Virus record (IMG/VR): IMGVR_UViG_3300029722_000071
Coordinates: 1 to 9,516 of that record
Source of the DNA: a virus
Lineage: Duplodnaviria; Heunggongvirae; Uroviricota; Caudoviricetes
DNA length: 9,516 nt
Strand: one strand, 5' to 3'
In this document: positions 1 to 9,516 of the stretch, in pieces
How positions within the stretch are numbered: position 1 is the stretch's first letter
Layout of the letters: every line of letters begins with the position of its first letter
Translations under genes and position numbers: made by a program
The notes under the pieces: model-generated
Seen by the model: only the letters and a program-made list of their open reading frames with translations
Databases searched by the model: none
Told to the model about the DNA's origin: nothing

Positions 1-19
1 CTAATGGCGGTATGTGATA

Positions 20-95
20 TGGTGGCCCTTGCTGGATTTGAACCAGCGACCTGGCGATTATGAGTCGCTCGCTCTCACCACTGAGCTAAAGGGCC
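20..95 (-). tRNA. tRNA with CAU anticodon, tRNA-Ile2 (lysidine-type, ileX/ileY/ileZ-like); elongator tRNA-Met not excluded
   Basis: Reverse complement of 20..95 is GGCCCTTTAGCTCAGTGGTGAGAGCGAGCGACTCATAATCGCCAGGTCGCTGGTTCAAATCCAGCAAGGGCCACCA (76 nt): 7-bp acceptor stem, D arm GCTC/GAGC, anticodon loop CTCATAA (anticodon CAT), T arm with GGTTCAAATCC, encoded CCA. Overall pattern matches E. coli tRNA-Ile2 as I recall it. Confidence 0.8.
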
Positions 96-135
96 GGGCG
101 CAGGATAATAACGGTACGTAACTAATCCTGCAATA

Positions 136-1194
136 TCATCCATTCTGACTGACTAAATCCTGTACTTCCCTGACCGTCTGCTCAAAACGTTCAGTCTCCA
201 GCTCAACGCCAGTTGCACGACGCCCCAGCGCCATCGCAGCTTTGACTGTCGAACCCGACCCCATGAAGAAATCTGCAACCAGGTCACCCGGACGACTGCT
301 CGCACTGATTATCTGCTGCAGCATTTCTGCCGGTTTTTCGCACGGATGTTTCCCGGGATAGTACTGCACCGGTTTATGCGTCCACACATCCGTGTACGGT
401 ACCTGCGCAGTTACGCCAAAATACCGCCGCAGATGCTTATATTCACTCTGCAGTTCCGCATACTGCCGGTTCAGTGAAGTATACGTCTCCAGCAGCTGGT
501 GGTGGGGCTTTTCCAGTTCACCGCGCTGATGCTTCTCTTCTGCCACCCGGGCAAACAGCGCCTGTAATTTCAGATAATCGCTTTCGTTCGGTAGCTGCCA
601 CTGACCGGCACTGAACCAGTGCGACACCATGTTTTTCTTTCCTGTGGCATCCACTATCTGTTTTGCCGTTATCCCCAGGGCAGCACGCGCATCACGAAAG
701 TAAGCAATCAGCGGAGCCATCACATGCTGTTTCAGTGCCCTGCCCTTCGCCTCATACCCGGCATCTTTCGGGCGATACGGCCCCTGATAATGTTCCGCGA
801 ACAGAATGCGCTCTGTGGCGGGGAAATACGCCCTCAGGCTTTCCTTGTTGCACCCGTTCCAGCGTCCGGACGGCTTCGCCCAGATAATATGGTTCAGCAC
901 ACTGAAGCGTTCACGCATCATGATTTCGATATCAGATGCCAGGCGATGGCCACAGAACAGGTAAAGACTTCCGGCAGGTTTCAGCACCCGCCAGAACTGC
1001 GCAAGACACTGGTCCAGCCATTTCAGGTAATCATCGTCGCCCTTCCACTGGTTATCCCAGCCCTCAGGCTTCACTTTAAAGTACGGCGGGTCCGTGACTA
1101 TCAGGTCAACAGAATTTTCGGGTAACGACCGGATAAATTCCAGGCAGTCGGCGTTGATTAACTCACAACTGGATATTTTTACAGTGTTAAACAT
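136..1194 (-). CDS. DNA methyltransferase, beta-class N6-adenine/N4-cytosine type (orphan; no adjacent restriction gene)
   Basis: 352-aa ORF with catalytic DPPY motif near the N-terminus (IVTDPPYF) and the SAM-binding FxGxG motif near the C-terminus (DFFMGSGST), the motif IV-before-motif I order of beta-class amino-MTases. ATG start at 1194. Target sequence cannot be inferred. Confidence 0.85.
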   Translation of the reverse strand: MFNTVKISSCELINADCLEFIRSLPENSVDLIVTDPPYFKVKPEGWDNQWKGDDDYLKWLDQCLAQFWRVLKPAGSLYLFCGHRLASDIEIMMRERFSVLNHIIWAKPSGRWNGCNKESLRAYFPATERILFAEHYQGPYRPKDAGYEAKGRALKQHVMAPLIAYFRDARAALGITAKQIVDATGKKNMVSHWFSAGQWQLPNESDYLKLQALFARVAEEKHQRGELEKPHHQLLETYTSLNRQYAELQSEYKHLRRYFGVTAQVPYTDVWTHKPVQYYPGKHPCEKPAEMLQQIISASSRPGDLVADFFMGSGSTVKAAMALGRRATGVELETERFEQTVREVQDLVSQNG

Positions 1195-1330
1195 GGATCA
1201 TTAAGCCTGTCTCTGATAGGCTCATTCTGCTTTTGCGCAAAGCAGTGGGCCTGAGGTTTGCTTGTGATCCGGACGCATGAGCAGATGGCTGGTGAGTGCC
1301 CCTAACACCCACCAGCCGCCCATTTACCAC

Positions 1331-1358
1331 AAATAAAAAAGCCTTCAGGACTGAAGGC
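1331..1358 (-). terminator. Rho-independent terminator for minus-strand transcripts
   Basis: Plus strand 1341..1358 gccttca-ggac-tgaaggc (7-bp stem, 4-nt loop) preceded by aaataaaaaa (1331..1340), so the minus-strand RNA has the hairpin followed by a U-run. Overlaps the stop codon of the 1345..1542 gene. Confidence 0.7.
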
Positions 1359-1542
1359 GTCTGTAACAACCGAACTGATAGTCTGCCAGCCCCGCCATAA
1401 CAAGCTGGGTCAGTATTAACTGACAGCGTTCGCGTGAAAGGTACGTATTCTGTGCAATCTCCCCGACTGTCGCCGGTTCGGTGACGCTTAATTCATTAAA
1501 CACCACTCTGGCGGTTTCGGTCATATCCTGCTGTTTCAGCAT
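1345..1542 (-). CDS. small winged-helix DNA-binding protein (65 aa), hypothetical; FaeA/PapI-like pattern possible
   Basis: Track ORF 1345..1665 shortened to the internal ATG at 1542 (MLKQQDMTETARVV...), which has an AGGGA Shine-Dalgarno about 7 nt upstream; the longer N-terminal extension runs through an upstream terminator hairpin. Sequence TVGEIAQNTYLSRERCQLILTQLVMAG looks like a helix-turn-helix/wing. Confidence 0.5.
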   Translation of the reverse strand: MLKQQDMTETARVVFNELSVTEPATVGEIAQNTYLSRERCQLILTQLVMAGLADYQFGCYRRLQS

Positions 1543-1663
1543 GTCTTTTTCCCTTTTCCGGTTAACGTGACACACCAATAACTCTTGTCGAAAAAGCCAG
1601 CAAGCTGAAAGAACGGTATTAATAACCACCAGCGAATTTATTGCGCTGCTGTATATTACGGAC

Positions 1664-1686
1664 ACAAAAAAACCACCTTCCGGTGG
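1664..1686 (-). terminator. Candidate intrinsic terminator (tR-prime-like) downstream of the Q-like gene
   Basis: Plus 1673..1686 ccacc-ttcc-ggtgg (5-bp GC stem, GGAA tetraloop on the minus strand) preceded by a 7-A run (1666..1672), giving a U7 tract after the hairpin on the minus-strand RNA. About 75 nt downstream of the Q-like stop. Confidence 0.5.
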
Positions 1687-1759
1687 CTTCCTTGTGCGAA
1701 AAAAACTTGCATTTCGCCTCGCGATACAGCCTTGCGAAGCTTATACGGATTGAAGCAGT

Positions 1760-2332
1760 TTATTGATCAGTTTGCAACATTTTTTTCTCTGTAACAAAAG
1801 CCATACGCATGGGGGCATGTAACATAAATTCAGATATCCCCAACCACTGATCAATTCGGCGTCTGCACGTAACCAACGTCCACTCAGGATGATCTGCATT
1901 TAACCTTTCGGCCATTTTCAGTTTGCTCATTCCCCGTCCTTCGTACCTTTGCCGGAGAATATTGATTAGTCCGGGATATTCCCCAAGCACCTCACTGATA
2001 ACGCGATCAATAATCAACGCCTCTGTGTCTGTACAATGTGACAACCAGCTCTTCTGCTTCCCTCTGGTCATATCCCGAAAAAATGCCTCAAGTTCCGGTT
2101 TTTCCAGCCCGGATTTCTTCATTCTGCGTAAAACCTCATTAACTGCTGTTTTCGTCAGCTTTTTCGAAACCAGTAACCGGTTAAACATATTTCCGGATTT
2201 ACCCCCACCGATATACGACCACCGCCCCCACATCCGTAATTTCCCCTGGATCCAGACTGCTTCCAGCGTGTTCAGGCGTAAATGTTCGCCGCTTTTGCCT
2301 GTAATTTCCGGATATATCATATTTACGCTCAC
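1760..2332 (-). CDS. putative late-gene antiterminator Q-like protein (190 aa); function assigned mainly by synteny
   Basis: Lies immediately downstream of rusA with a GTGA stop/start overlap, as Q does in phage 82/DLP12-type lambdoids, and is followed by a promoter-sized gap and a terminator. N-terminal WGRW motif resembles the WGAW of QuuD-type Q proteins as I recall them. No motif-level proof. Confidence 0.5.
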   Translation of the reverse strand: MSVNMIYPEITGKSGEHLRLNTLEAVWIQGKLRMWGRWSYIGGGKSGNMFNRLLVSKKLTKTAVNEVLRRMKKSGLEKPELEAFFRDMTRGKQKSWLSHCTDTEALIIDRVISEVLGEYPGLINILRQRYEGRGMSKLKMAERLNADHPEWTLVTCRRRIDQWLGISEFMLHAPMRMAFVTEKKMLQTDQ

Positions 2333-2694
2333 TCACTCTCAATTTTGTAAATCTTCACACCCAGCCGACCACCAAGAACAAGCTGACCACGTACAATATT
2401 GATTTCATCAAACTGCTCATCGTCCATTAACAACCCCGCATGCGTAAGCGCATCCAGCGGTGCTTTCAGAATATTGTCCAGGTCACGGCGGCGCTTATCC
2501 GGTGGTTCTGCAATAATTTTTATTGCCAACCGTCCGGACAGGCTTAATTTCAAGCGCTGCTGGCGAACAATAAGCGCCACTGCCCGGCGATAACGCTCCC
2601 CGGCTTTTGATACAAAATATGTGCTGCCACGGCGTCGCCAGTAAGTGTTCACCGTCGGCGGGTAAGGCAAAACAAATTCTATGCGTTCGGTCAT
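2329..2694 (-). CDS. rusA: RusA-family Holliday junction resolvase (crossover junction endodeoxyribonuclease)
   Basis: 121-aa product MTERIEFVLPYPPTVNTYWRRRG...PDKRRRDLDNILKAPLDALT...GGRL matches the E. coli RusA pattern (LPWPPS.N.Y, PDRRRRDLDN, GGRL). ATG at 2694 directly follows the upstream stop. Confidence 0.9.
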   Translation of the reverse strand: MTERIEFVLPYPPTVNTYWRRRGSTYFVSKAGERYRRAVALIVRQQRLKLSLSGRLAIKIIAEPPDKRRRDLDNILKAPLDALTHAGLLMDDEQFDEINIVRGQLVLGGRLGVKIYKIESE

Positions 2695-3759
2695 TTATGC
2701 TTTCCACTTCAGAACACCCGAATTTCTCGCGTGCATTAAAAAACGAATCAGCAACAACAGCTGACTGCCGTGTTTCTCTTCAAAATCTTTTACTCCGGCG
2801 TGTAGTTCGTTATGGCATTTACGGCACAGCGGAATAACAAACAAATCGTCAGCCTTTGTTCCCATCCCTCCCAGTCCATGACCAATGATGTGATGCGGAT
2901 CATCTGCCTGATTGCCACACGTCATGCATTTCTGCGTTTTTACCCAGCGCGTGTATACAGGCATCTCTTCCCGTTGTGGTTTCTGGCGCTGGAGATACTG
3001 AGCCGGAGATTCCGGATCAACGGCAATGCTGACCACCGTCTTTTCCTGTGGTGGGTTCTGTTGCTGGTGCTGGTGGACGTGAGGCGGTAGCGCAATATTT
3101 TTTGTGCGCTGCTTCAGTATGCTGGTGGCTGTCTGTTCTCCCGGTACGATGTCGCTCTCACTGTATACGGAGCGGATTTTTTTCACCGGTAATCCCAGTG
3201 AACGACGCAATACAGACTCCGGAAGCGCATCAGCCACCTGATTGCAGACCGCCCACCAGGATAATTCGGCCAGCGATAACTCCCTCTCCTGCGTACCGCT
3301 GATTGCGTGACGGATGACGTCAATCATCCATGCTGACAGGTTTTGATGAGCAAGTTGCCCGAGTGATTCGGATGTCTGGTCACGCAGCTGGTTGTCGCAG
3401 TGCCAGCACAACACCATCGCGCCGGTACCGTAACGATGTATGACGATTTCACTGTGATGATAGTCACCATGAGGCCACTGGCAGGATTTGACATGACGCA
3501 ACAGCCAGTCAGACAGTGCCCCAGCACCACCAGCAGCACGAATCACCCGATCATCGCTGAAAAATGGCAGTAATGATTTATCCTCCGCCAGCGGCTGGCG
3601 AACAGCAGGGACGACTCCGGACGGCAGATTACGCATGCTTTTCGGTTCCGGCTCCACCAGTACCCGGGTATTGTGGAATACCGGCATGGATTCACGGCCC
3701 GGCTTAACGATCACCAGCCCGAGTTCCGGTACCAGAACAGGTCGAAGTAATACCCGCAC
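2695..3759 (-). CDS. DUF968-family (YdfU-like) protein with C-terminal HNH-type zinc-finger nuclease motif
   Basis: 354-aa ORF; C-terminus CMTCGNQADDPHHIIGHGLGG...PLCRKCHNELH has the Cys pairs and His residues of an HNH zinc finger. GTG start at 3759 has a GGAGG Shine-Dalgarno 4 nt upstream. Same position relative to hok as ydfU in the K-12 Qin prophage. Confidence 0.75.
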   Translation of the reverse strand: MRVLLRPVLVPELGLVIVKPGRESMPVFHNTRVLVEPEPKSMRNLPSGVVPAVRQPLAEDKSLLPFFSDDRVIRAAGGAGALSDWLLRHVKSCQWPHGDYHHSEIVIHRYGTGAMVLCWHCDNQLRDQTSESLGQLAHQNLSAWMIDVIRHAISGTQERELSLAELSWWAVCNQVADALPESVLRRSLGLPVKKIRSVYSESDIVPGEQTATSILKQRTKNIALPPHVHQHQQQNPPQEKTVVSIAVDPESPAQYLQRQKPQREEMPVYTRWVKTQKCMTCGNQADDPHHIIGHGLGGMGTKADDLFVIPLCRKCHNELHAGVKDFEEKHGSQLLLLIRFLMHARNSGVLKWKA

Positions 3760-3760
3760 G

Positions 3761-4039
3761 TTACCTCCAGATGCGTTGCTGGAATGTGCGGGACGGACGC
3801 GGTGGGCGTTCAGAGTAAGGAAGCCTGACGGAGATTATCCAGTGACGATAATCGAGGCTGAGGGTTTTCCTAAACTCATACCCACGTCTGCGGTAGTTCT
3901 GAATCAGCCATTCGGCCTGTTCTTCAGTGCATGGGGCGTGCTGTAACCAGTCAGATTTGAATGCATGAGAACGCCGCCCGTGCCTGCTGGCAAAGACGGC
4001 TGAATTATCAGAATTGTATAATTTGGTATCGTGCGCCAT
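3761..4039 (-). CDS. hypothetical protein (92 aa); positional equivalent of rem in Qin-type prophages
   Basis: Track ORF 3761..4120 shortened to the ATG at 4039 (MAHDTKLYNSDNSAVF...), because the TTG-initiated extension overlaps the hok terminator U-tract. No recognisable motif. Confidence 0.5.
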   Translation of the reverse strand: MAHDTKLYNSDNSAVFASRHGRRSHAFKSDWLQHAPCTEEQAEWLIQNYRRRGYEFRKTLSLDYRHWIISVRLPYSERPPRPSRTFQQRIWR

Positions 4040-4110
4040 CGGTTGTCTCTGCTGGCGCAGCAGGTGCCAGTTGTTCAGGCTGGCGTGCGAATTGTAAACC
4101 AGAATGCCAG

Positions 4111-4138
4111 GAAAAAACAAAACCCGCCGAAGCGGGTT
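4111..4138 (-). terminator. Rho-independent terminator of the hok transcript
   Basis: Plus 4121..4138 aacccgc-cgaa-gcgggtt (7-bp stem, UUCG tetraloop on the minus strand) preceded by gaaaaaacaa, giving a U-rich tail on the minus-strand RNA. An additional 9-bp hairpin ggcgaggga/tccctcgcc lies at 4179..4200, where an fbi-like hok 3-prime element would be expected. Confidence 0.75.
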
Positions 4139-4206
4139 AAGTGCGGGTGCGTTGAGGATGCCTGACTCATCAGAGGTGGCGAGGGATTTCTCCCTCGCCA
4201 GGTCTC

Positions 4207-4362
4207 TTACTCCTCAGGTTCGTAAGCTGTGAAGACAGCGACCTCCGTCTGGCCGGTTCGGATTCGTACCTCGCAGAGGTCTTTCCTCGTTACCAGTGCC
4301 GTCACAATGACGGTAATACAGATGACGATCAGGGCGACTAACATCGCCTTTTGCTGCTTCAT
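4207..4362 (-). CDS. hokD: Hok/Gef-family type I toxin (51 aa), HokD/RelF-type
   Basis: Product MKQQKAMLVALIVICITVIVTALVTRKDLCEVRIRTGQTEVAVFTAYEPEE is nearly identical to E. coli K-12 HokD/RelF as I recall it. ATG at 4362 with AAGGAG Shine-Dalgarno; the track ORF extends in-frame to an upstream ATG at 4419. Confidence 0.9.
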   Translation of the reverse strand: MKQQKAMLVALIVICITVIVTALVTRKDLCEVRIRTGQTEVAVFTAYEPEE

Positions 4363-4409
4363 AGCCTGCTTCTCCTTGCCTTTCGGCGTGTAAGAGGCTA
4401 ACCTACATG

Positions 4410-4486
4410 TGACTAGCATGAAATTGGCCTCAGATTAATGTTAAGCGTCCTGCAAGACGCATAATGTTAACTGGGGCTTTTCTCTG
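4410..4486 (+). ncRNA. candidate Sok-like antisense RNA (approximate boundaries)
   Basis: Plus-strand region antisense to the hok leader around the upstream mok-like ATG: long-range stem gcctcag (4427..4433) / ctggggc (4471..4477) enclosing hairpin gcgtc-ctgcaa-gacgc (4445..4460), followed by uuuucucu. Position matches where sok lies in plasmid R1 hok/sok. Promoter not confidently located. Confidence 0.35.
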
Positions 4487-4535
4487 TCTGCCTTACGGTG
4501 GCATGCCCGAGGCAGACAGCCTCAAGCACCCGCAG

Positions 4536-4566
4536 CAATTCTACTTAACTCTCGCTTTACCGCAAA
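4536..4566 (-). promoter_or_regulatory. candidate sigma70 promoter of the hok mRNA
   Basis: On the minus strand: -35 TTGCGG (plus 4560..4565), 16-bp spacer, -10 TAGAAT (plus 4538..4543), about 7 nt before a 5-prime sequence GGUGCUUGAGGCUGUCUGCC that resembles the R1 hok mRNA 5-prime end as I recall it. Confidence 0.4.
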
Positions 4567-4577
4567 CCGTTTTTACC

Positions 4578-4599
4578 CGATATGGGAATTCCCATATCG
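4578..4599. promoter_or_regulatory. 22-bp perfect palindrome just upstream of the hok promoter; candidate protein-binding site
   Basis: cgatatgggaattcccatatcg is a perfect inverted repeat (11-bp arms, no spacer), about 12 bp upstream of the candidate -35. Not followed by a U-run on either strand, so not a terminator. Confidence 0.3.
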
Positions 4600-4607
4600 T
4601 AATGAAT

Positions 4608-4712
4608 TCAGTTCCCTAGTCGATCCATCAAAAACACAACCAGGCAGTAAACACCCACAACAGCAATAACAGCCAGCGCACCTTCCATTGCCAGTGAGAT
4701 ATCATCCGACAC
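4608..4712 (-). CDS. candidate small hydrophobic protein (34 aa) missing from the ORF track
   Basis: Minus strand reads AAAGGAGGGAAT-GTG TCG GAT GAT ATC ... TGA, giving MSDDISLAMEGALAVIAVVGVYCLVVFLMDRLGN: a strong Shine-Dalgarno 4 nt before GTG and one predicted transmembrane helix. Start codon uncertain (in-frame ATG at 4688 would give 26 aa). Confidence 0.3.
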   Translation of the reverse strand: MSDDISLAMEGALAVIAVVGVYCLVVFLMDRLGN

Positions 4713-4827
4713 ATTCCCTCCTTTGGTGTTAATCCCGGCGAACGCTTTTACCCACACCGACAAATAACATATACTAAAAAAGCGATAGCCATAGCAACGC
4801 CTGTAATTGCAAATGCTTCAGGCTAGG

Positions 4828-5745
4828 TCATTGGCGTACCTCCTTCGGCGGTTCTGGTAGCGGCATCCAGTGGGTTACTTTCGATGCCGGTTCTTCCCCA
4901 TTGTCAGTAACTGCCCACCATTTGTTTCTCGAACAATCGTAATACCCTTCGAAGGTATCGCACTCAGTCCAGCCGTAAGACTTACCCCAACACCAAACAT
5001 ACTGTTTATCGTTCGGCATTCGCTCACTACAGCTTATCCAACCATCCGGAGTTACCGGAGAGTTGCCCGATAGTGCATTCTGCTCCAGTGATGCTTTTAC
5101 AAACCACGCTGCCTGAACTATAACGCCATGAATCCAGCGCAAATCAGCATCGCGATCTTTCTTTTTCATCTTTTCGCCACTTAAGGCCTTGCTTATGTGG
5201 CTGCGTACCAGGTCTTCATGCAATTCCTTCGCCTCCTCAATGGTGAAACCACCAGGCAGAAGAGCCGGAGTTACCGGAGAGCTGGTTGACGCTTCCGGGA
5301 TTTCCCGAAAATTATTGGTTGACGAATTCTTGCTTTCCCGAAAGTTTCCGGACTGAAGCATGGCGGTGCGGCAGGCGTTCCATATTTCGGCAGCAATATC
5401 GCGCTCGCTATCGGTTAATTTGTACGTGGAAACATAGCCAGAGAGCATTTCTACGTTTTCCGGAGTTGCTTCTTCCGGCACTACCGGCGCTGGCGGGGCG
5501 GCAAATAGATATCCGCCAAAGTCAGGAAGCTCTCCAATGGCCTGTACGAACTTTTGTTTGCCTACGTCAACTCCTAATGGGTAATGAGCTATAATCTTTG
5601 CCACCGGCTCTGCTTCCAGCGATACCAGTGCAATTCGTGCCAGTTCTTCCGCTTCTTCTGCTGGCAGTACAACGTTGCTACCCGGTCCGTATGTTTCGCG
5701 CCACTGCTTGATTGTCAGCAGTCGCCCTTTGGTAATAGTGATCAT
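4828..5745 (-). CDS. DUF551 domain-containing phage protein (305 aa)
   Basis: C-terminus DGWISCSERMPNDKQYVWCWGKSYGWTECDTFEGYY...VTHWMPLPEPPK matches the DUF551 signature as I recall it. ATG at 5745 overlaps the upstream stop (ATGA). Confidence 0.8.
   Translation of the reverse strand: MITITKGRLLTIKQWRETYGPGSNVVLPAEEAEELARIALVSLEAEPVAKIIAHYPLGVDVGKQKFVQAIGELPDFGGYLFAAPPAPVVPEEATPENVEMLSGYVSTYKLTDSERDIAAEIWNACRTAMLQSGNFRESKNSSTNNFREIPEASTSSPVTPALLPGGFTIEEAKELHEDLVRSHISKALSGEKMKKKDRDADLRWIHGVIVQAAWFVKASLEQNALSGNSPVTPDGWISCSERMPNDKQYVWCWGKSYGWTECDTFEGYYDCSRNKWWAVTDNGEEPASKVTHWMPLPEPPKEVRQ
5046..5062. repeat. 17-bp perfect direct repeat, copy 1, inside the DUF551 gene
   Basis: ccggagttaccggagag at 5046..5062 and again at 5265..5281, 219 bp apart (in frame); both copies encode the S-P-V-T-P peptide. 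Confidence 0.7.
5265..5281. repeat. 17-bp perfect direct repeat, copy 2, inside the DUF551 gene
   Basis: Identical to 5046..5062. Confidence 0.7.
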
Positions 5746-6257
5746 GCCGCGTTTCCTTCTTTCTTATTAACAATCACACCGTCATATATTTCATTAAGGT
5801 GCCCTCTCAACTCCATGCGCCTTAATGCAGATAACATGTAATCGCATTCAACCTGCTTATTCCCAGTAAATGGCTTATCGTCAGGATTACCCCAACAGCA
5901 ATTACCCCTGGGCCATCCATGTACTTTCCGTACTCTTCCGTTAACAACGTGAAGTAATCCCCAGCCGGGAGGTAAATCCTCAACTGAAATAATTTCCGGC
6001 TCACTAATAAAGAATCGCCAGTCGCCCATGCCAAGTGAGGGATTTTTACGGAAACGCTTTTTTCTATCTGCCAACAAGTCAGCACGAGAACACTTCGCCT
6101 CTATCAGGCATGATGCTGAATTTCTGAATCCCATAGCATCTGGCTGTTCTCCGGTACTGGTTACAGCAACAAAGCGGTCATGAAAGCAAACCTTGAACCC
6201 GTTGCGCTTAAGGAACTTGTACGCAATCTGACAGAGTTCGTGGTGTGTTAACGCCAT
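5742..6257 (-). CDS. putative PD-(D/E)xK-fold nuclease-like protein (171 aa)
   Basis: Track ORF 5742..6290 shortened to the ATG at 6257, which sits behind the duplicated GGAGAG-TGA-n-ATG junction. Sequence ...VAVTSTGEQPDAMGF-8 aa-CLIEAKCSRADL has the hydrophobic-strand D ... E-x-K spacing of restriction-endonuclease-like nucleases. Confidence 0.55.
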   Translation of the reverse strand: MALTHHELCQIAYKFLKRNGFKVCFHDRFVAVTSTGEQPDAMGFRNSASCLIEAKCSRADLLADRKKRFRKNPSLGMGDWRFFISEPEIISVEDLPPGWGLLHVVNGRVRKVHGWPRGNCCWGNPDDKPFTGNKQVECDYMLSALRRMELRGHLNEIYDGVIVNKKEGNAA

Positions 6258-6282
6258 ATCACTCTCCTTTGATGCGAATGCC
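6255..6282. repeat. 28-bp duplicated gene-junction module, copy 1
   Basis: cat-a-tcactctcctttgatgcgaatgcc at 6255..6282; apart from one base it is identical to 7098..7125. Encodes the ...GIRIKGE-stop tail of the upstream gene, a GGAGAG Shine-Dalgarno and the ATG of the next gene. Confidence 0.75.
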
Positions 6283-6780
6283 TGTTGCAATGCTGTTTAT
6301 GATGCTGTCAGTGCATGGGGTAGAAAGCTGGGCATCTCCAGCAATTTTCATGACCTCAACATCTGCATATCGAATACCGAGGTGTATCAGACCGGCTATG
6401 CCTGACTTAAGTCGAACATTTTCCATAAACAGATCTTTTTCCCGCTGTTTAGCGGCTTCCAACTCCATCGACAATTTTTCCAACTGCTCTTTATGCTTCT
6501 TGTATTCCTGATACGCGTGCCAAGACTGACCTTTGCGCACACTATCAGTGATATCAGCAACCTGCTCCGGTGTTAGCGTGGTCAGTGGCTGTGCTGGAAA
6601 AATCATCACCTTCCCGGCATCCCAATCAAAACCCGCCTGAATTGACTGAACCTCAACTGATGGTGTTGAACCGATGCGACCAGGCGAATGAACAACGATC
6701 GTTACATCCATATCGCGACGATGGCTGTGGTTGTTGGACAAAATACGATTCACCAACTCAGAAAATTTGGAAAATTTCAT
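6259..6780 (-). CDS. hypothetical coiled-coil protein with C-terminal GIRIKGE tail (173 aa)
   Basis: Track ORF 6259..6909 shortened to the ATG at 6780 ([14 protein letters not shown]...), which overlaps the upstream stop (ATGA). C-terminal ...ATGIRIKGE is shared with the 7102..7851 product. Confidence 0.55.
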
Positions 6781-7100
6781 GCTGATCCCTCTTTTTCTCC
6801 CCGGATAATTCTGTTGCACACATCCACACACTCGTCGCAGATGAAAACGGCGTCCCCAGCAATTAACTTTTTGACGGCGTACTGGGATTTGTTGCAGAAG
6901 CTGCAACAAAGTGTTCGCCTGACTGATAAGGATGGAGCGCCAGATGTCAGCCGCTCCATATCGTTCTTGCGACGCAATATCACACGGCTGAACTCAACCA
7001 GTTTCTCCGGGGATATCTCCTCCTCCGTAGCAAGCGCCTCTAATCGTTCGAGTATGTGGAAGGCTTTTTTCTGGGTAATTGCAGAATGCGATGTGGTCAT
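6777..7100 (-). CDS. small protein with C-terminal ClpX-type C4 zinc-finger domain (107 aa)
   Basis: Track ORF 6777..7142 shortened to the ATG at 7100, behind the conserved junction. C-terminal [39 protein letters not shown] closely parallels the ClpX N-terminal zinc-binding domain ([39 protein letters not shown], as I recall it). Confidence 0.75.
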
Positions 7101-7125
7101 CTCACTCTCCTTTGATGCGAATGCC
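7098..7125. repeat. 28-bp duplicated gene-junction module, copy 2
   Basis: cat-c-tcactctcctttgatgcgaatgcc at 7098..7125; see copy 1. Confidence 0.75.
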
Positions 7126-7851
7126 AGCGGCGCGGGAATCATTCCATCGCTTTACTTCTTCACGAATTACGTCAATGCACTCTTTCGAATCCATTAGGTA
7201 ATCTTCATCAAAAAGACGTTCCTGTTCGTTTTCTATCGCAACAATGATTGCTTCAACTAACTTTTGTGCCTGAGAACCACTTTCTAACTCTGCAATGCGC
7301 TTCTCTGCGGCTTCCAGATTCTCGCGCATATCGTCAACGTACTCGACCAGAGATCCGCCAGCAGGAATTTCGCATTCCTCGACCAGTTGGAAGTAGATAT
7401 CAGCTGCGGCCCGTGTGTTGCTATGCCTAGCGTCGCCCATCTCACCTTCACGAAGAGCATCGCGTTCGGCGGTAAGATTGGCTATTTTGCTGTCTTTGCC
7501 TTCCAGCTCAACGCGCAGCCTCCCAACCGTAAGCGCAATATCCTCGTTCTCCTGATCGCGGCTTTTGATGTATTGCAGGTTTCTTTCCCGTTCATCCAGC
7601 AGTGCCAGCACGGTAGCCGGGTTAGCCTCTGCTATGAATTCAGCGTTTGCATAAGCCTGAGCATCTGTTTCAACCAGGCAGTTAACGTGACATTCTGCAA
7701 TTACGCCACCGGGTTCTCCTTTCCATTTTTGACAAACAAAAACTCCTGTTAAATTGCCGTGTTGGTTAACAGATGTATGCCCTACGATGTAGCTTCCTTT
7801 AGTTGCTTTCTCTGCCTTTTCACGCAGTGCCTGATAGTTAATCTCGCTCAC
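7102..7851 (-). CDS. ead/Ea22-like coiled-coil protein (249 aa); family assignment tentative
   Basis: GTG start with GGAGG Shine-Dalgarno, overlapping the upstream stop (GTGA). N-terminus [17 protein letters not shown] and the segment [18 protein letters not shown] resemble prophage ead/Ea22-like proteins as I recall them; C-terminal ...AAGIRIKGE. Confidence 0.55.
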
Positions 7852-8072
7852 TCTTCATCCTCCAAGTCGGCAACGGCGTCCATCACATCAGAACCGCGAA
7901 TAACCTCAAAAGCACGGCAGGCCATTTGAAATACCAGTTGCTCTTGCGGGTGAGGAGACTCCCAATATTTGAAGCCTGGGCGATGCGTGTACCCCATCAT
8001 TGAATAAAAATCACCAGCAAGCTTAATCGCGGCATCGACAAGCTCTCTGTTAGTCATTCTTTTTCCGCTCAC
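7848..8072 (-). CDS. hypothetical protein (74 aa), mildly acidic C-terminus
   Basis: GTG start at 8072 with AAGGAGG Shine-Dalgarno 6 nt upstream, overlapping the upstream stop (GTGA). No recognisable motif. Confidence 0.55.
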   Translation of the reverse strand: MSGKRMTNRELVDAAIKLAGDFYSMMGYTHRPGFKYWESPHPQEQLVFQMACRAFEVIRGSDVMDAVADLEDEE

Positions 8073-8500
8073 TGGTTGCCTCCTTTGCGAAGCTGGGCAG
8101 CAAAGTCAACTAACCACTCAGTCATTTCAACCTTCCCTACCAGGTCTGAACCAGGGTACATACAGCAATCACTCTGCGCCGCTTTGAAATCCTTATACTC
8201 ATATTCTTGGGCCACCAGATTTTTTGCAGCTTCTATAGCAGCATCCACCCCCTGCGCCCGGACTTCAGCCAGGAAAGCATCAGTGGCTGGCATATTTCCT
8301 GTTGCCTTCATTGCCTCCAAAATAACCAGAACGCCATCTCGCCCAATCTCCTCGCAGATAACCTCGGTGCTGTCGCCAACAACATCGCAAAATGCCTGAA
8401 CTGCTTTACGAGCCAGCGCATCTTCCGCCCTGTGAAACGCCTCGCGGTTGAAATTTTCATATCCCGTCATTGGACCGGCAATATAAACTCTCACCCTCAC
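8069..8500 (-). CDS. hypothetical protein with DUF4406 / nucleoside 2-deoxyribosyltransferase-like N-terminal motif (143 aa)
   Basis: GTG start at 8500 with AGGAGG Shine-Dalgarno. N-terminus MRVRVYIAGPMTGYENFNREAFHRAEDAL matches the YIAGPMTG...N..F..A DUF4406 signature as I recall it; the C-terminal MYPGSDLVGKVEMTEW may correspond to its LPGWE.S.G motif. The roughly 80 residues between do not look like that family. Confidence 0.5.
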   Translation of the reverse strand: MRVRVYIAGPMTGYENFNREAFHRAEDALARKAVQAFCDVVGDSTEVICEEIGRDGVLVILEAMKATGNMPATDAFLAEVRAQGVDAAIEAAKNLVAQEYEYKDFKAAQSDCCMYPGSDLVGKVEMTEWLVDFAAQLRKGGNQ

Positions 8501-8889
8501 TCCATCACCTCCTGAAAGTTTCCCCGATAGAACGCCAGCACACGCTGCATAACTTCGCTCCTCCTGCTCTCACGACAAATTATGTTCTGCCGTCTGTTGT
8601 AACGACGTATTTCTCCGTCAGGTAACTTTCGAATCAGTGTCGGGTCAGCAGCCTTCTCCGGTGTCTTACGCCATACGCGATACGCCTGCTCTGATGGAAA
8701 TACCCCGCAACCAGAGAGCCAGACATCACCACTGGCCGCAAGCGCACCAGATAAACGACGAATAGCGGTCTTACTGACACCCGTTTTATCTGCCAGTTGT
8801 CGAAAAGTTTCTCGTCCGCTCAGGCGCACGAATTCCACAATGCGCGCCTTCACTTCTTCCCGCTCTTCTGGTGTAAATACTTTTGCCAT
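8497..8889 (-). CDS. helix-turn-helix DNA-binding protein (130 aa), hypothetical
   Basis: Track ORF 8497..8904 (TTG start) shortened to the ATG at 8889, which has a GGAGG Shine-Dalgarno 5 nt upstream. HTH-like segment ETFRQLADKTGVSKTAIRRLSGAL. Confidence 0.55.
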   Translation of the reverse strand: MAKVFTPEEREEVKARIVEFVRLSGRETFRQLADKTGVSKTAIRRLSGALAASGDVWLSGCGVFPSEQAYRVWRKTPEKAADPTLIRKLPDGEIRRYNRRQNIICRESRRSEVMQRVLAFYRGNFQEVME

Positions 8890-8904
8890 AAGCGCCTCCG
8901 GCAA

Positions 8905-9486
8905 TCACTTTTCCGACACAATACGACCGGATGAATCGACAATCTGTCGAACAATATCCCGGTGCTTGTTCAGCTCCCGCAGCGCGGCGCAGACTCGCTC
9001 CCACTTCTGAACCTGACCTTTTGCCCGGCGCAGCTCGCGGTTAGCCACATGCAGCGATGGTAAAATCAGACCATCCGGATGTTTTCTGGTGAACGACGGC
9101 TGTGACTGCACTGTGACCGCCACACTTTCCGTTTTTATTTCTTCCTGTGTTTCTGCTTCCCGGACAGGTAACGCAACACCTGCTGGCTGAGGAAAGGCTT
9201 TACCATCGGTTTCCGCTACGGATGCAGCTTCCGGCTCTGCCGGTAAATCAGCGCCCGGTATGCAGTAACGAAATTTACCGCCCTGATTCACGCGAATCAG
9301 ACGCCCTTTGCTGATTGCCATGGCCAGCGATGAATTCGCCCGGCGGGAGGTAATCCCGAACATCAGTGCCAGCTCATCCGCCGTTTGTGGGCCATGTTGT
9401 TCAATCGCCTCAGTCAACATTTGCGCTGTCACTTTCGGTACCGGTGACACCGGTTCACTTTCACCAGCCTGAATCAGCCACCACAT
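8905..9486 (-). CDS. hypothetical protein with N-terminal winged-helix-like region (193 aa); may extend beyond the window
   Basis: ATG at 9486 has an AAGGG Shine-Dalgarno-like sequence upstream, but the frame stays open to the window end at 9516, so the true start could lie outside. No recognisable catalytic motif. Confidence 0.5.
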
Positions 9487-9516
9487 CGAACCCTTGTTAT
9501 CCGCTTCACCGCGGCG

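Follow-up and report, generated by a model that had tools for sequence, protein, structure and literature searches.

How does a lambdoid prophage carry, as the first enzyme gene of its late operon, a DNA-modification gene that is harmful to the growing cell? The question is raised by a 9,516-nucleotide stretch of Caudoviricetes DNA (positions 1 to 9,516 of IMG/VR record IMGVR_UViG_3300029722_000071; called here the window, meaning the whole 9.5-kb stretch that was analysed), in which all genes lie on the minus strand. A Q-like late antiterminator gene is followed by a terminator (T1), a 65-aa open reading frame (ORF), a second terminator hairpin (T2) on the stop codon of that ORF and a gene for a beta-class DNA methyltransferase. 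A preliminary description had this anatomy right and overlooked a conserved structured leader RNA that ends in the methyltransferase AUG. We read the module as the start of a late operon with an anti-restriction methylase as cargo, in which the leader would serve as a gate on the translation of the first late gene, and give this reading a probability of about 0.7.

A structured leader RNA precedes the methyltransferase

The spacer between the small gene and the methyltransferase was compared in 23 genomes that were found via the small protein and that range from Escherichia to Providencia and Mixta. It keeps a constant length of about 150 nt, and neither protein is as well conserved as its sequence. 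The leader within it is a real structured RNA of five helices (P1 to P5, Table 1). Among 45 non-redundant leaders, aligned with MAFFT from sequence only, 82.8% of cells were paired, against 33 to 42% when the partners were slid, and 21 pairs had changed on both sides (7 to 13 when slid); none of 500 shuffles reached the observed values. Alignment of 64 distinct leaders to the covariance model gave 84.7% paired cells (33 to 45% when slid) and 27 pairs changed on both sides (7 to 14 when slid), again with 0 of 500 shuffles reaching the observed level. The structure also holds in 47 distinct divergent members, where 83.7% of cells were paired (27 to 42% when slid), 31 of the 41 pairs had changed on both sides and the covariation score was 0.47, compared with at most 0.11 in slid controls.

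When 24 diverse members were aligned by sequence only and folded de novo with RNAalifold, the variable helices misaligned, and no more than P1 and portions of P2 and P3 came out. Frequent G-U pairing is limited to the sense strand, which argues for RNA rather than DNA. Each locus gives a single hit of the covariance model, and the hit invariably ends at the methyltransferase AUG. Two candidate features were discarded: a leader peptide starting from the AUG inside AAAUGGGCG, as its ORF varies from 7 to about 45 codons and one member (L247) has AUA instead, and Chi as a conserved feature of P2, since P2 covaries freely. A GATC (Dam) site stands just upstream of the methyltransferase AUG in nearly all M.EcoGII-class leaders (in the window 3 nt upstream, at 1195-1200, minus strand), and a second lies in the P3 loop (1265-1270, minus strand) of the window and of Providencia-type leaders.

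The leader appears to be undescribed. It has no match in Rfam 15 at E ≤ 1 over 1192-1332, four divergent loci likewise gave none for their leaders at E ≤ 0.1, and a survey of 224 motifs held nothing like it. The prophage small RNAs EcOnc/AsxR/AgvB and Pas are located elsewhere. Leader sequence strings were absent from the searchable literature, which excludes most subscription journals, so that a prior description is possible there.

Table 1. Features of the module and its surroundings (window positions; for helices, the two strands of each stem)
Feature	Position	Strand	Description or basis
tRNA, first gene of phage tRNA cluster, CAU anticodon	20..95	-	ARAGORN; Rfam tRNA 72.5 bits
Orphan beta-class N6-adenine DNA methyltransferase, M.EcoGI/GII family, 352 aa	136..1194	-	Pfam; M.EcoGII identity
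Structured leader RNA, 141 nt, ending in methyltransferase AUG	1192..1332	-	Covariance model R1, 121 bits, E 3e-31
Leader start region	1201-1195	-	Without Shine-Dalgarno sequence
Leader P5	1224-1219 with 1207-1202	-	Just before CUGAUCUAUG
Leader P4	1245-1239 with 1233-1227	-	Hairpin, palindromic apex (AGCGCT or TGTGCACA)
Leader P3	1285-1276 with 1266-1257	-	
Leader P2	1317-1306 with 1298-1287	-	Contains Chi at 1316-1309
Leader P1	1322-1318 with 1250-1246	-	UGGGC with GCCCA; closes three-way junction with P2 and P3
Alternative leader fold (predicted)	1323-1318 with 1282-1277; 1270-1260 with 1206-1195	-	Single-sequence folding
T2	1331..1358	-	Hairpin 1358-1341 and U-tract 1340-1331; small-gene TGA (1347-1345) inside
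Small gene, 65-aa putative minimal winged-helix protein	1345..1542	-	RefSeq WP_000917768.1 (RefSeq calls the same ORF); PHROG 331
Conserved untranslated stretch ahead of small gene	1543..1661	-	Chi 1633-1626; block CTTGCTGG..CAAGAGTTATTGGTGTGTCAC
T1, intrinsic terminator	1662..1697	-	Core stem 1686-1673; U7 tract 1672-1666
Q-like late antiterminator gene, 190 aa, DUF1133 type	1760..2332	-	Pfam; PHROG

A competing fold would bury the start codon region

When single leader sequences are folded, the minimum-energy structure is an alternative fold and not the one supported by covariation. UGGGC, the 5' strand of P1, is then predicted to pair with GCUCA of the P3 5' arm, extending P2, while the freed P3 3' arm (GGUCAcAAGC) would pair with GCUUAcUGAUC and bury positions -12 to -1, whose predicted mean unpaired probability is 0.26. 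The alternative helices are about 90% paired across the 45 sequences, with three pairs changed on both sides, and several alignment columns covary with both of their alternative partners. The UGGGC/CCCAU complementarity is kept in divergent leader classes; as UGGGC, the 5' partner, is nearly invariant, it gives no covariation evidence for the pairing. A possible pseudoknot, in which GGUCA of the P3 loop would pair with the UGAUC that precedes the AUG, is 94% paired without covariation, and uses the same bases as the alternative fold. A switch between the two folds, which exclude each other and are both compatible with the sequences, is plausible and unproven.

The leader family marks a position in the late operon

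The leader is present in 1651 of 5426 complete E. coli genomes (about 30%) and in 56 phage records. For a wider sample, a degenerate junction pattern was scanned over viral contigs, giving 64 loci of which 58 match the model, and the ORF at or just after the 3' end of each of these 58 hits was classified. The resulting counts are indicative only: the Mom family (Pfam PF25680, 2e-70) accounts for 18, M.EcoGII-like methylases for 13, ParB_N proteins for eight (one a 476-aa ParB-methylase fusion), C5 cytosine methylases for seven and holins for five; three leaders are followed by a Com-like CxxC..CxxC ORF of 41-48 aa and then an M.EcoGII-like gene, and four contigs end before any ORF. These leaders abut a start codon or lie within 24-56 nt of one. 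Relatives of the leader precede phage DNA-modification genes of four unrelated kinds (M.EcoGII-like, C5 cytosine methylase, Mom and ParB-methylase) and, except for an orphan copy, are placed between Q and the lysis genes, so that the family is a marker of the first late gene in many lambdoid prophages of enterobacteria; one Mom locus has the order Q-like gene, leader, Mom, holin, endolysin. The association with C5 methylases was also found independently in metagenome and viral contigs. A search of GenBank phage records found no Mom-class leader and only one partial match of the holin class. In a pattern scan of metagenomes, only 19 of 80 model-searched loci were true leaders and the rest chance matches.

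The Com-like ORF, found at three loci (L506, L515 and L521), starts at the position of the leader AUG and precedes a 348-aa M.EcoGII-like methyltransferase. It comes near the threshold of Pfam Zn_ribbon_Com, the Mu Com family (20.3 bits, cut-off 22.9).

Some variants of the leader stand apart. The orphan copy (72 bits; L278, 5273-5408) is flanked by ireA on one side and an 'inovirus Gp2 family' gene on the other, in genomic islands of extraintestinal pathogenic E. coli, with no ORF after it; it is also found in E. coli ATCC 11775 (L385; NZ_CP033092.2, ~830,965-831,325), and the 361-nt stretch around it matches 321 of the 5426 E. coli genomes. A shorter leader of about 80 nt, which keeps only AAAUGG and a P2-like hairpin, is paired with a divergent winged-helix gene upstream of some M.EcoGII-like genes (about 18 of the 151 distinct regions compared; L118, L120, L121, L123, L124, L127 and similar loci). 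A further locus (L020, 3980-4302) has the small gene and a leader copy (91 bits) with no methyltransferase after them, and looks like a deletion derivative.

The methyltransferase is of the M.EcoGII type

The enzyme encoded after the leader matches Pfam N6_N4_Mtase (PF01555, 6.7e-44) over residues 29-340. DPPY at residues 35-38 (TDPPYF, 34-39) precedes FxGxG (FFMGSGS) near residue 310, which is the beta-class order, and the relatives of known structure that come closest to it, among them M.RsrI and CcrM, are likewise beta-class enzymes. It has no adjacent endonuclease gene, its neighbours being the small ORF and tRNA genes. With 327 of 349 residues identical to M.EcoGII (about 94%; the reference is the sequence printed in the supplement of PMC11551740, whose text derives from optical character recognition, so that the true identity is possibly slightly higher), it is, judged by sequence, an M.EcoGII-type enzyme.

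M.EcoGII methylates adenine whatever the surrounding sequence, on DNA as well as RNA, and is unexpressed in the lysogen; its constitutive expression leads to slow growth and unstable clones (PMC5778455). Its probable role, as proposed there, is against host restriction upon induction, and phage 1720a-02, the DNA of which is 98.2% identical to the window, was named as a carrier of a very similar enzyme (PMC5778455). M.EcoGII and M.EcoGI of E. coli O104:H4 C227-11 (Murray et al. 2018, PMC5778455) share with the window enzyme its prophage location, beta-class order and lack of a partner endonuclease, in addition to the ~94% identity. They differ in that the window allele is known from sequence alone; the upstream small gene, the terminators and the leader are not described in the M.EcoGII papers PMC5778455 and PMC7544214. 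M.EcoGIX, considered at first as the non-specific phage enzyme, was dropped from the comparison, as the literature describes it as plasmid-borne and specific for single strands.

The module opens a lambdoid late operon

The module makes up the opening 1.6 kb of the late operon in an E. coli prophage of the lambdoid kind. The prophage of E. coli DETEC-S792 is 100% identical to the window and has the order replication and nin-type genes, DUF968/HNH, RusA, DUF1133 protein, 65-aa ORF, DNA methyltransferase, tRNA-Ile, two tRNA-Arg, esterase, holin, lysozyme and terminase. The arrangement of small ORF and methyltransferase is a known module, annotated in SfV, phiP27 and many Stx2 phages. Positions 1-1674 of the window match 289 phage records, including Stx2a/c/d phages, 1720a-02, phiP27 and SfV, and homology to these records ends at about 1634-1674, that is, at T1. 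The Q gene, the type of which varies, belongs to a different exchangeable module, outside the mobile one.

The orf47-orf48 pair of SfV, also found in phiP27, mEp460, the cdtI phage and Stx2a/c/d phages, follows the same order of Q, terminator, small ORF and methyltransferase, with putative terminators annotated after Q (the T1 position) and after orf48. Identity to the window is 95% for the small ORF and 81% for the enzyme, and the SfV leader scores 149 bits. SfV differs in having an upstream Q gene of a different type and no tRNA genes after the methyltransferase.

The Q-like protein of the window matches Pfam DUF1133 (4e-104), Phage_antitermQ (PF06530; 32.3 bits, cut-off 26) and PHROG 753, 'anti-termination protein Q-like' (1.8e-74), and in the identical prophage its gene sits between that for RusA and the lysis genes, at the nin/lysis boundary. 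The two terminators that the preliminary description had proposed downstream of it both have intrinsic form, a G+C-rich hairpin with a U-tract directly after it. The core of T1 is a CCACC-GGAA-GGUGG stem followed by seven U; its extended fold of 16 pairs (1697-1662) has a predicted free energy of -23.9 kcal/mol (z -6.2), and none of 200 shuffles was as stable. A strong terminator stands at the T1 position in every related locus examined, and the sequence to the left of T1 varies with the type of Q. T1 is probably the tR' of the late promoter. T2 has a 7-pair stem with a UUUUUUAUUU tail and by itself is unremarkable (z -1.9; 10 of 200 shuffles fold as well), but its hairpin is preserved across genera by compensatory changes (GCCTTCAG/CTGAAGGC, GCCTCCA/TGGGGGC, CTCCGC/GCGGAG and GCTGCCA/TGGCAG). 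The five terminator-like sites in 1-2600, against 2.5 ± 1.4 in shuffles, are not a significant number alone; T1 and T2 are credible because they are conserved across relatives and not because of this count.

In lambda, with tR' and its 6S RNA, and in Stx phages, with the short StxS transcript (PMC7547250), the late promoter that lies downstream of Q is followed at once by a terminator, which Q overrides. The window differs in that a second terminator and a structured leader follow, and in that its late promoter was not located by consensus. Consensus scans for separate promoters were negative, with no sigma-70 consensus ahead of the small gene or of the methyltransferase in the window and related loci (three loci). 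A moron in the sense of Hendrix would bring a promoter and a terminator of its own; upstream of the small gene stands a conserved block that contains TTGCTG, and the three loci show no sigma-70 consensus. Q-dependent read-through, as had been proposed, is consistent with the gene order, with the missing sigma-70 consensus and with the silence of M.EcoGII in the lysogen (PMC5778455). The conserved block has the form CTTGCTGG-N10-CCAGAGTTATCTGTATGTCAC in the window (~1555-1600, minus strand, 45-85 nt upstream of the small gene) and is common to several genera, standing at the same place in L003-L026, with no sigma-70 consensus there.

The small protein is tied to the enzyme class

As had been suggested and as modelling supports, a minimal winged helix is the most likely fold of the small protein. 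The AlphaFold2 (AF2) model has helices at residues 5-17, 26-33 and 37-49 and a beta hairpin at 53-62 (strands 53-56 and 59-62), and all 25 family members searched match Pfam DprA_WH and TrmB below threshold. Foldseek matches of the model are generic (E ~3e-3) and include IclR, MarR, O-methyltransferase dimerisation domains and SelB, with TM-scores up to 0.83 to the winged-helix domains of IclR and MarR. The family is narrow: a set of 1.84 billion proteins contains 62 cluster representatives of it, which are all closely related. It is also strongly conserved, and its ERCQLILTQLV helix is invariant. PHROG 331 carries no assigned function and NCBIfam has no model for the protein. A 106-aa version of the ORF starting at GTG was rejected because the upstream stretch is unconserved and contains indels. 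Some viral fold matches are Z-DNA or dsRNA-binding proteins, and a Z-alpha domain was considered. Z-alpha domains are diagnosed by Asn and Tyr in helix 3 and Pro-Pro-x-Trp in the wing; these residues are absent from the small protein by eye, and it was treated as a generic winged helix.

The small gene lies upstream of the methyltransferase in 223 of 258 M.EcoGII-type loci, and the 35 loci without it still keep the leader. In the second sample it was present in seven of 13 M.EcoGII-type loci and in none of 45 other leader loci. By these counts the small protein goes with the enzyme class, whereas the leader goes with the place of the first late gene. The protein would be a partner specific to the M.EcoGII class, most likely acting on that enzyme as a regulator or an accessory.

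Proposed mechanism and alternatives

In a lysogen, transcripts from the late promoter would halt at T1, and any read-through would then meet T2 as a back-up terminator. After induction, RNA polymerase modified by Q would pass both, so that the small winged-helix gene, the leader, the methyltransferase and the tRNAs would be transcribed in that order, followed by the lysis and head genes. The leader would gate translation, as one of its folds may pair the bases before an AUG that lacks a Shine-Dalgarno sequence, and the competing three-way-junction fold would free them. To judge from its family, the enzyme would methylate adenines in any context and so shield progeny DNA from many restriction systems, and the small protein may modulate the enzyme or its expression. 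The harm that such an enzyme does to a growing cell would explain the layered silencing.

Several points weigh against this reading. The two-fold model is built on predicted energies and a few covarying pairs. The T2 U-tract, strong in the window, is weak or absent in several genera, so that T2 is a convincing terminator in this phage and perhaps a mere hairpin in relatives. The scan of 1-2600 found no consensus late promoter between the Q-like gene and T1 (a TATAAG at 1745-1740 in this interval was spotted by eye), and the Q-dependence is inferred from gene order. The census of downstream genes is biased by the search pattern and redundant. The winged-helix model of the small protein is confident (pLDDT 87) in only one of five models, and its net charge of about -1, read from the sequence, is unusual for a nucleic-acid binder. 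M.EcoGII, moreover, is active without the small protein (PMC5778455), which is hence not needed for catalysis.

Other explanations of the leader have to be weighed against translational gating. That the intergenic conservation reflects a DNA-level element, either a Chi hotspot or a protein-binding palindrome, might be suggested by the Chi site inside P2, the 20-fold enrichment of Chi in the window and the palindromic apex of P4, but is scarcely credible, as in other genera the sequence of P2 is fully replaced with its pairing kept and Chi lost, and the frequent G-U pairs are confined to the sense strand. A riboswitch for a metabolite such as S-adenosylmethionine (SAM) or a related compound would account for a conserved three-way junction and hairpin joined to variable 3' expression platforms and non-homologous genes, which is a typical signature of riboswitches, and most of the downstream genes encode SAM-dependent methyltransferases. 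Mom-family proteins and holins, which are not known to be SAM enzymes, also follow the leader, however; the leader resembles no Rfam riboswitch, and what the downstream genes share is a genomic position and not a pathway, all of which makes this account improbable. The leader could instead be a safety lock that senses the state of the polymerase, with slow, unmodified enzyme that has leaked through the terminator giving the occluded fold and fast, pause-resistant, Q-modified enzyme the open one. Its usual place directly after a terminator-like hairpin, the harm that the downstream genes (DNA-modification enzymes and holins) would do in a lysogen, the absence of a cofactor common to the classes of downstream gene and the existence of two competing folds, in which a partner close by is available for the 5' segment to pair with first, all fit such a lock. 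We nevertheless consider it unlikely, because the argument is purely inferential and the orphan copy lies outside any late operon; we know of no precedent for a leader that senses polymerase state.

The role of the small protein admits alternatives of its own. The preliminary description had seen a FaeA/PapI-like pattern in it and suggested that, with the methyltransferase, it forms an epigenetic phase-variation module. PapI and FaeA are winged-helix proteins of similar size, and the small gene does adjoin an adenine methyltransferase. No family member of the 25 matches Pfam FaeA (PF04703), even at E ≤ 10, no PapI entry appeared in a profile search of PDB sequences (E ≤ 10) or among the top 50 fold matches, and no sequence relationship to PapI/FaeA was detectable. 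PapI acts with the site-specific Dam and with Lrp, whereas an enzyme ~94% identical to the non-specific M.EcoGII, which is silent in lysogens (PMC5778455), would be unable to write the differential GATC-type marks of a phase-variation switch. We therefore regard the epigenetic module as very improbable. Less easily set aside is a partner that acts on protein or DNA, whether as a brake of the inhibitor or antitoxin type, as a subunit for dimerisation or targeting, or by reading methylated DNA. The small protein co-occurs only with the M.EcoGII class and not with the leader generally, its best PDB fold matches include the winged-helix dimerisation domains of SAM-dependent methyltransferases, and PMC11037411 describes some prokaryotic winged-helix domains that sense N6-methyladenine. 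These fold matches are generic, however (E ~3e-3), and M.EcoGII works alone in vitro (PMC5778455), which makes such a partner somewhat unlikely. The small protein might also be a functional analogue of Mu Com that binds the leader and exposes the methyltransferase start once it has accumulated. The layout resembles that of Mu com-mom, where a DNA-modification gene that is toxic likewise comes with a structured leader and with a gene for a small nucleic-acid-binding protein; a sister group has the near-threshold Com-like ORF after the leader and then an M.EcoGII-like gene, Mom-family genes share the leader family, and winged-helix domains, with SelB among the fold matches, can bind RNA. On the other hand, the protein is not basic and has no homology to Com, and the leader occurs without a winged-helix gene in 35 of 258 M.EcoGII-type loci and in all Mom, C5, ParB and holin loci, so that we think this role rather unlikely.

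Whichever of these roles the small protein has, Mu com-mom is the closest functional precedent for the gated late gene proposed here. By analogy, both would combine a late, toxic, anti-restriction DNA-modification gene with a start-occluding leader and an adjacent gene for a small nucleic-acid-binding protein, and Mom-family genes and Com-like ORFs occur behind the same leader family. The two differ in that the small protein here is a predicted winged helix encoded upstream of the leader and not a zinc ribbon, to which it is not homologous (Com-like ORFs, below the cut-off, are confined to sister loci), and in that the RNA is a multi-helix element of ~140 nt and not a single hairpin.

Neighbouring genes and Chi sites

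The tRNA gene next to the methyltransferase is read as tRNA-Met (CAU) by ARAGORN and as tRNA-Ile by RefSeq, and two tRNA-Arg genes lie just beyond the window; the cluster of three resembles the ileZ-argN-argO cluster of Stx phages. tRNA genes 3' of the module occur only in Escherichia-type loci and are missing from most other genera. On the other side of the Q-like gene, the early-right cargo on the minus strand includes a DUF968/HNH protein (2695-3759), a region with a hok-like small membrane ORF (4207-4419), annotated as hokD by RefSeq in the identical DETEC-S792 prophage, and an ORF with a ClpX-C4-type zinc finger (6777-7142).

Chi (GCTGGTGG) occurs six times in the window, against 0.29 expected: at 495-502, 3069-3076 and 3121-3128 on the plus strand and at 1309-1316, 1626-1633 and 3527-3534 on the minus strand. 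Besides the copy inside P2, one lies upstream of the small gene. Over 26.4 kb of the same prophage (L001) there are 11 copies on both strands, compared with about one expected.

Implications

The pair of small gene and methyltransferase is itself ordinary, and it is the leader that matters. Tentatively, the leader may be the first known case of a so far undescribed kind of cis-regulatory RNA switch, which would gate translation of the first, usually toxic, late gene in lambdoid prophages of enterobacteria, with a small phage protein (a winged helix here, Com-like zinc ribbons elsewhere), the Q-modified state of the polymerase or a ligand as the trigger. Enzymes of the M.EcoGII family are sold commercially and widely used as research tools, and their natural regulation is not described in the M.EcoGII papers PMC5778455 and PMC7544214. 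If it exists, such a class of switches would explain the full silence of M.EcoGII-type, C5, Mom and ParB-type enzymes in lysogens. If the leader is a translational gate, it would answer how prophages safely carry toxic genes, and would extend the principle of Mu com-mom to lambdoid phages, including Shiga-toxin phages, in which the element lies on the late transcript that also carries stx.

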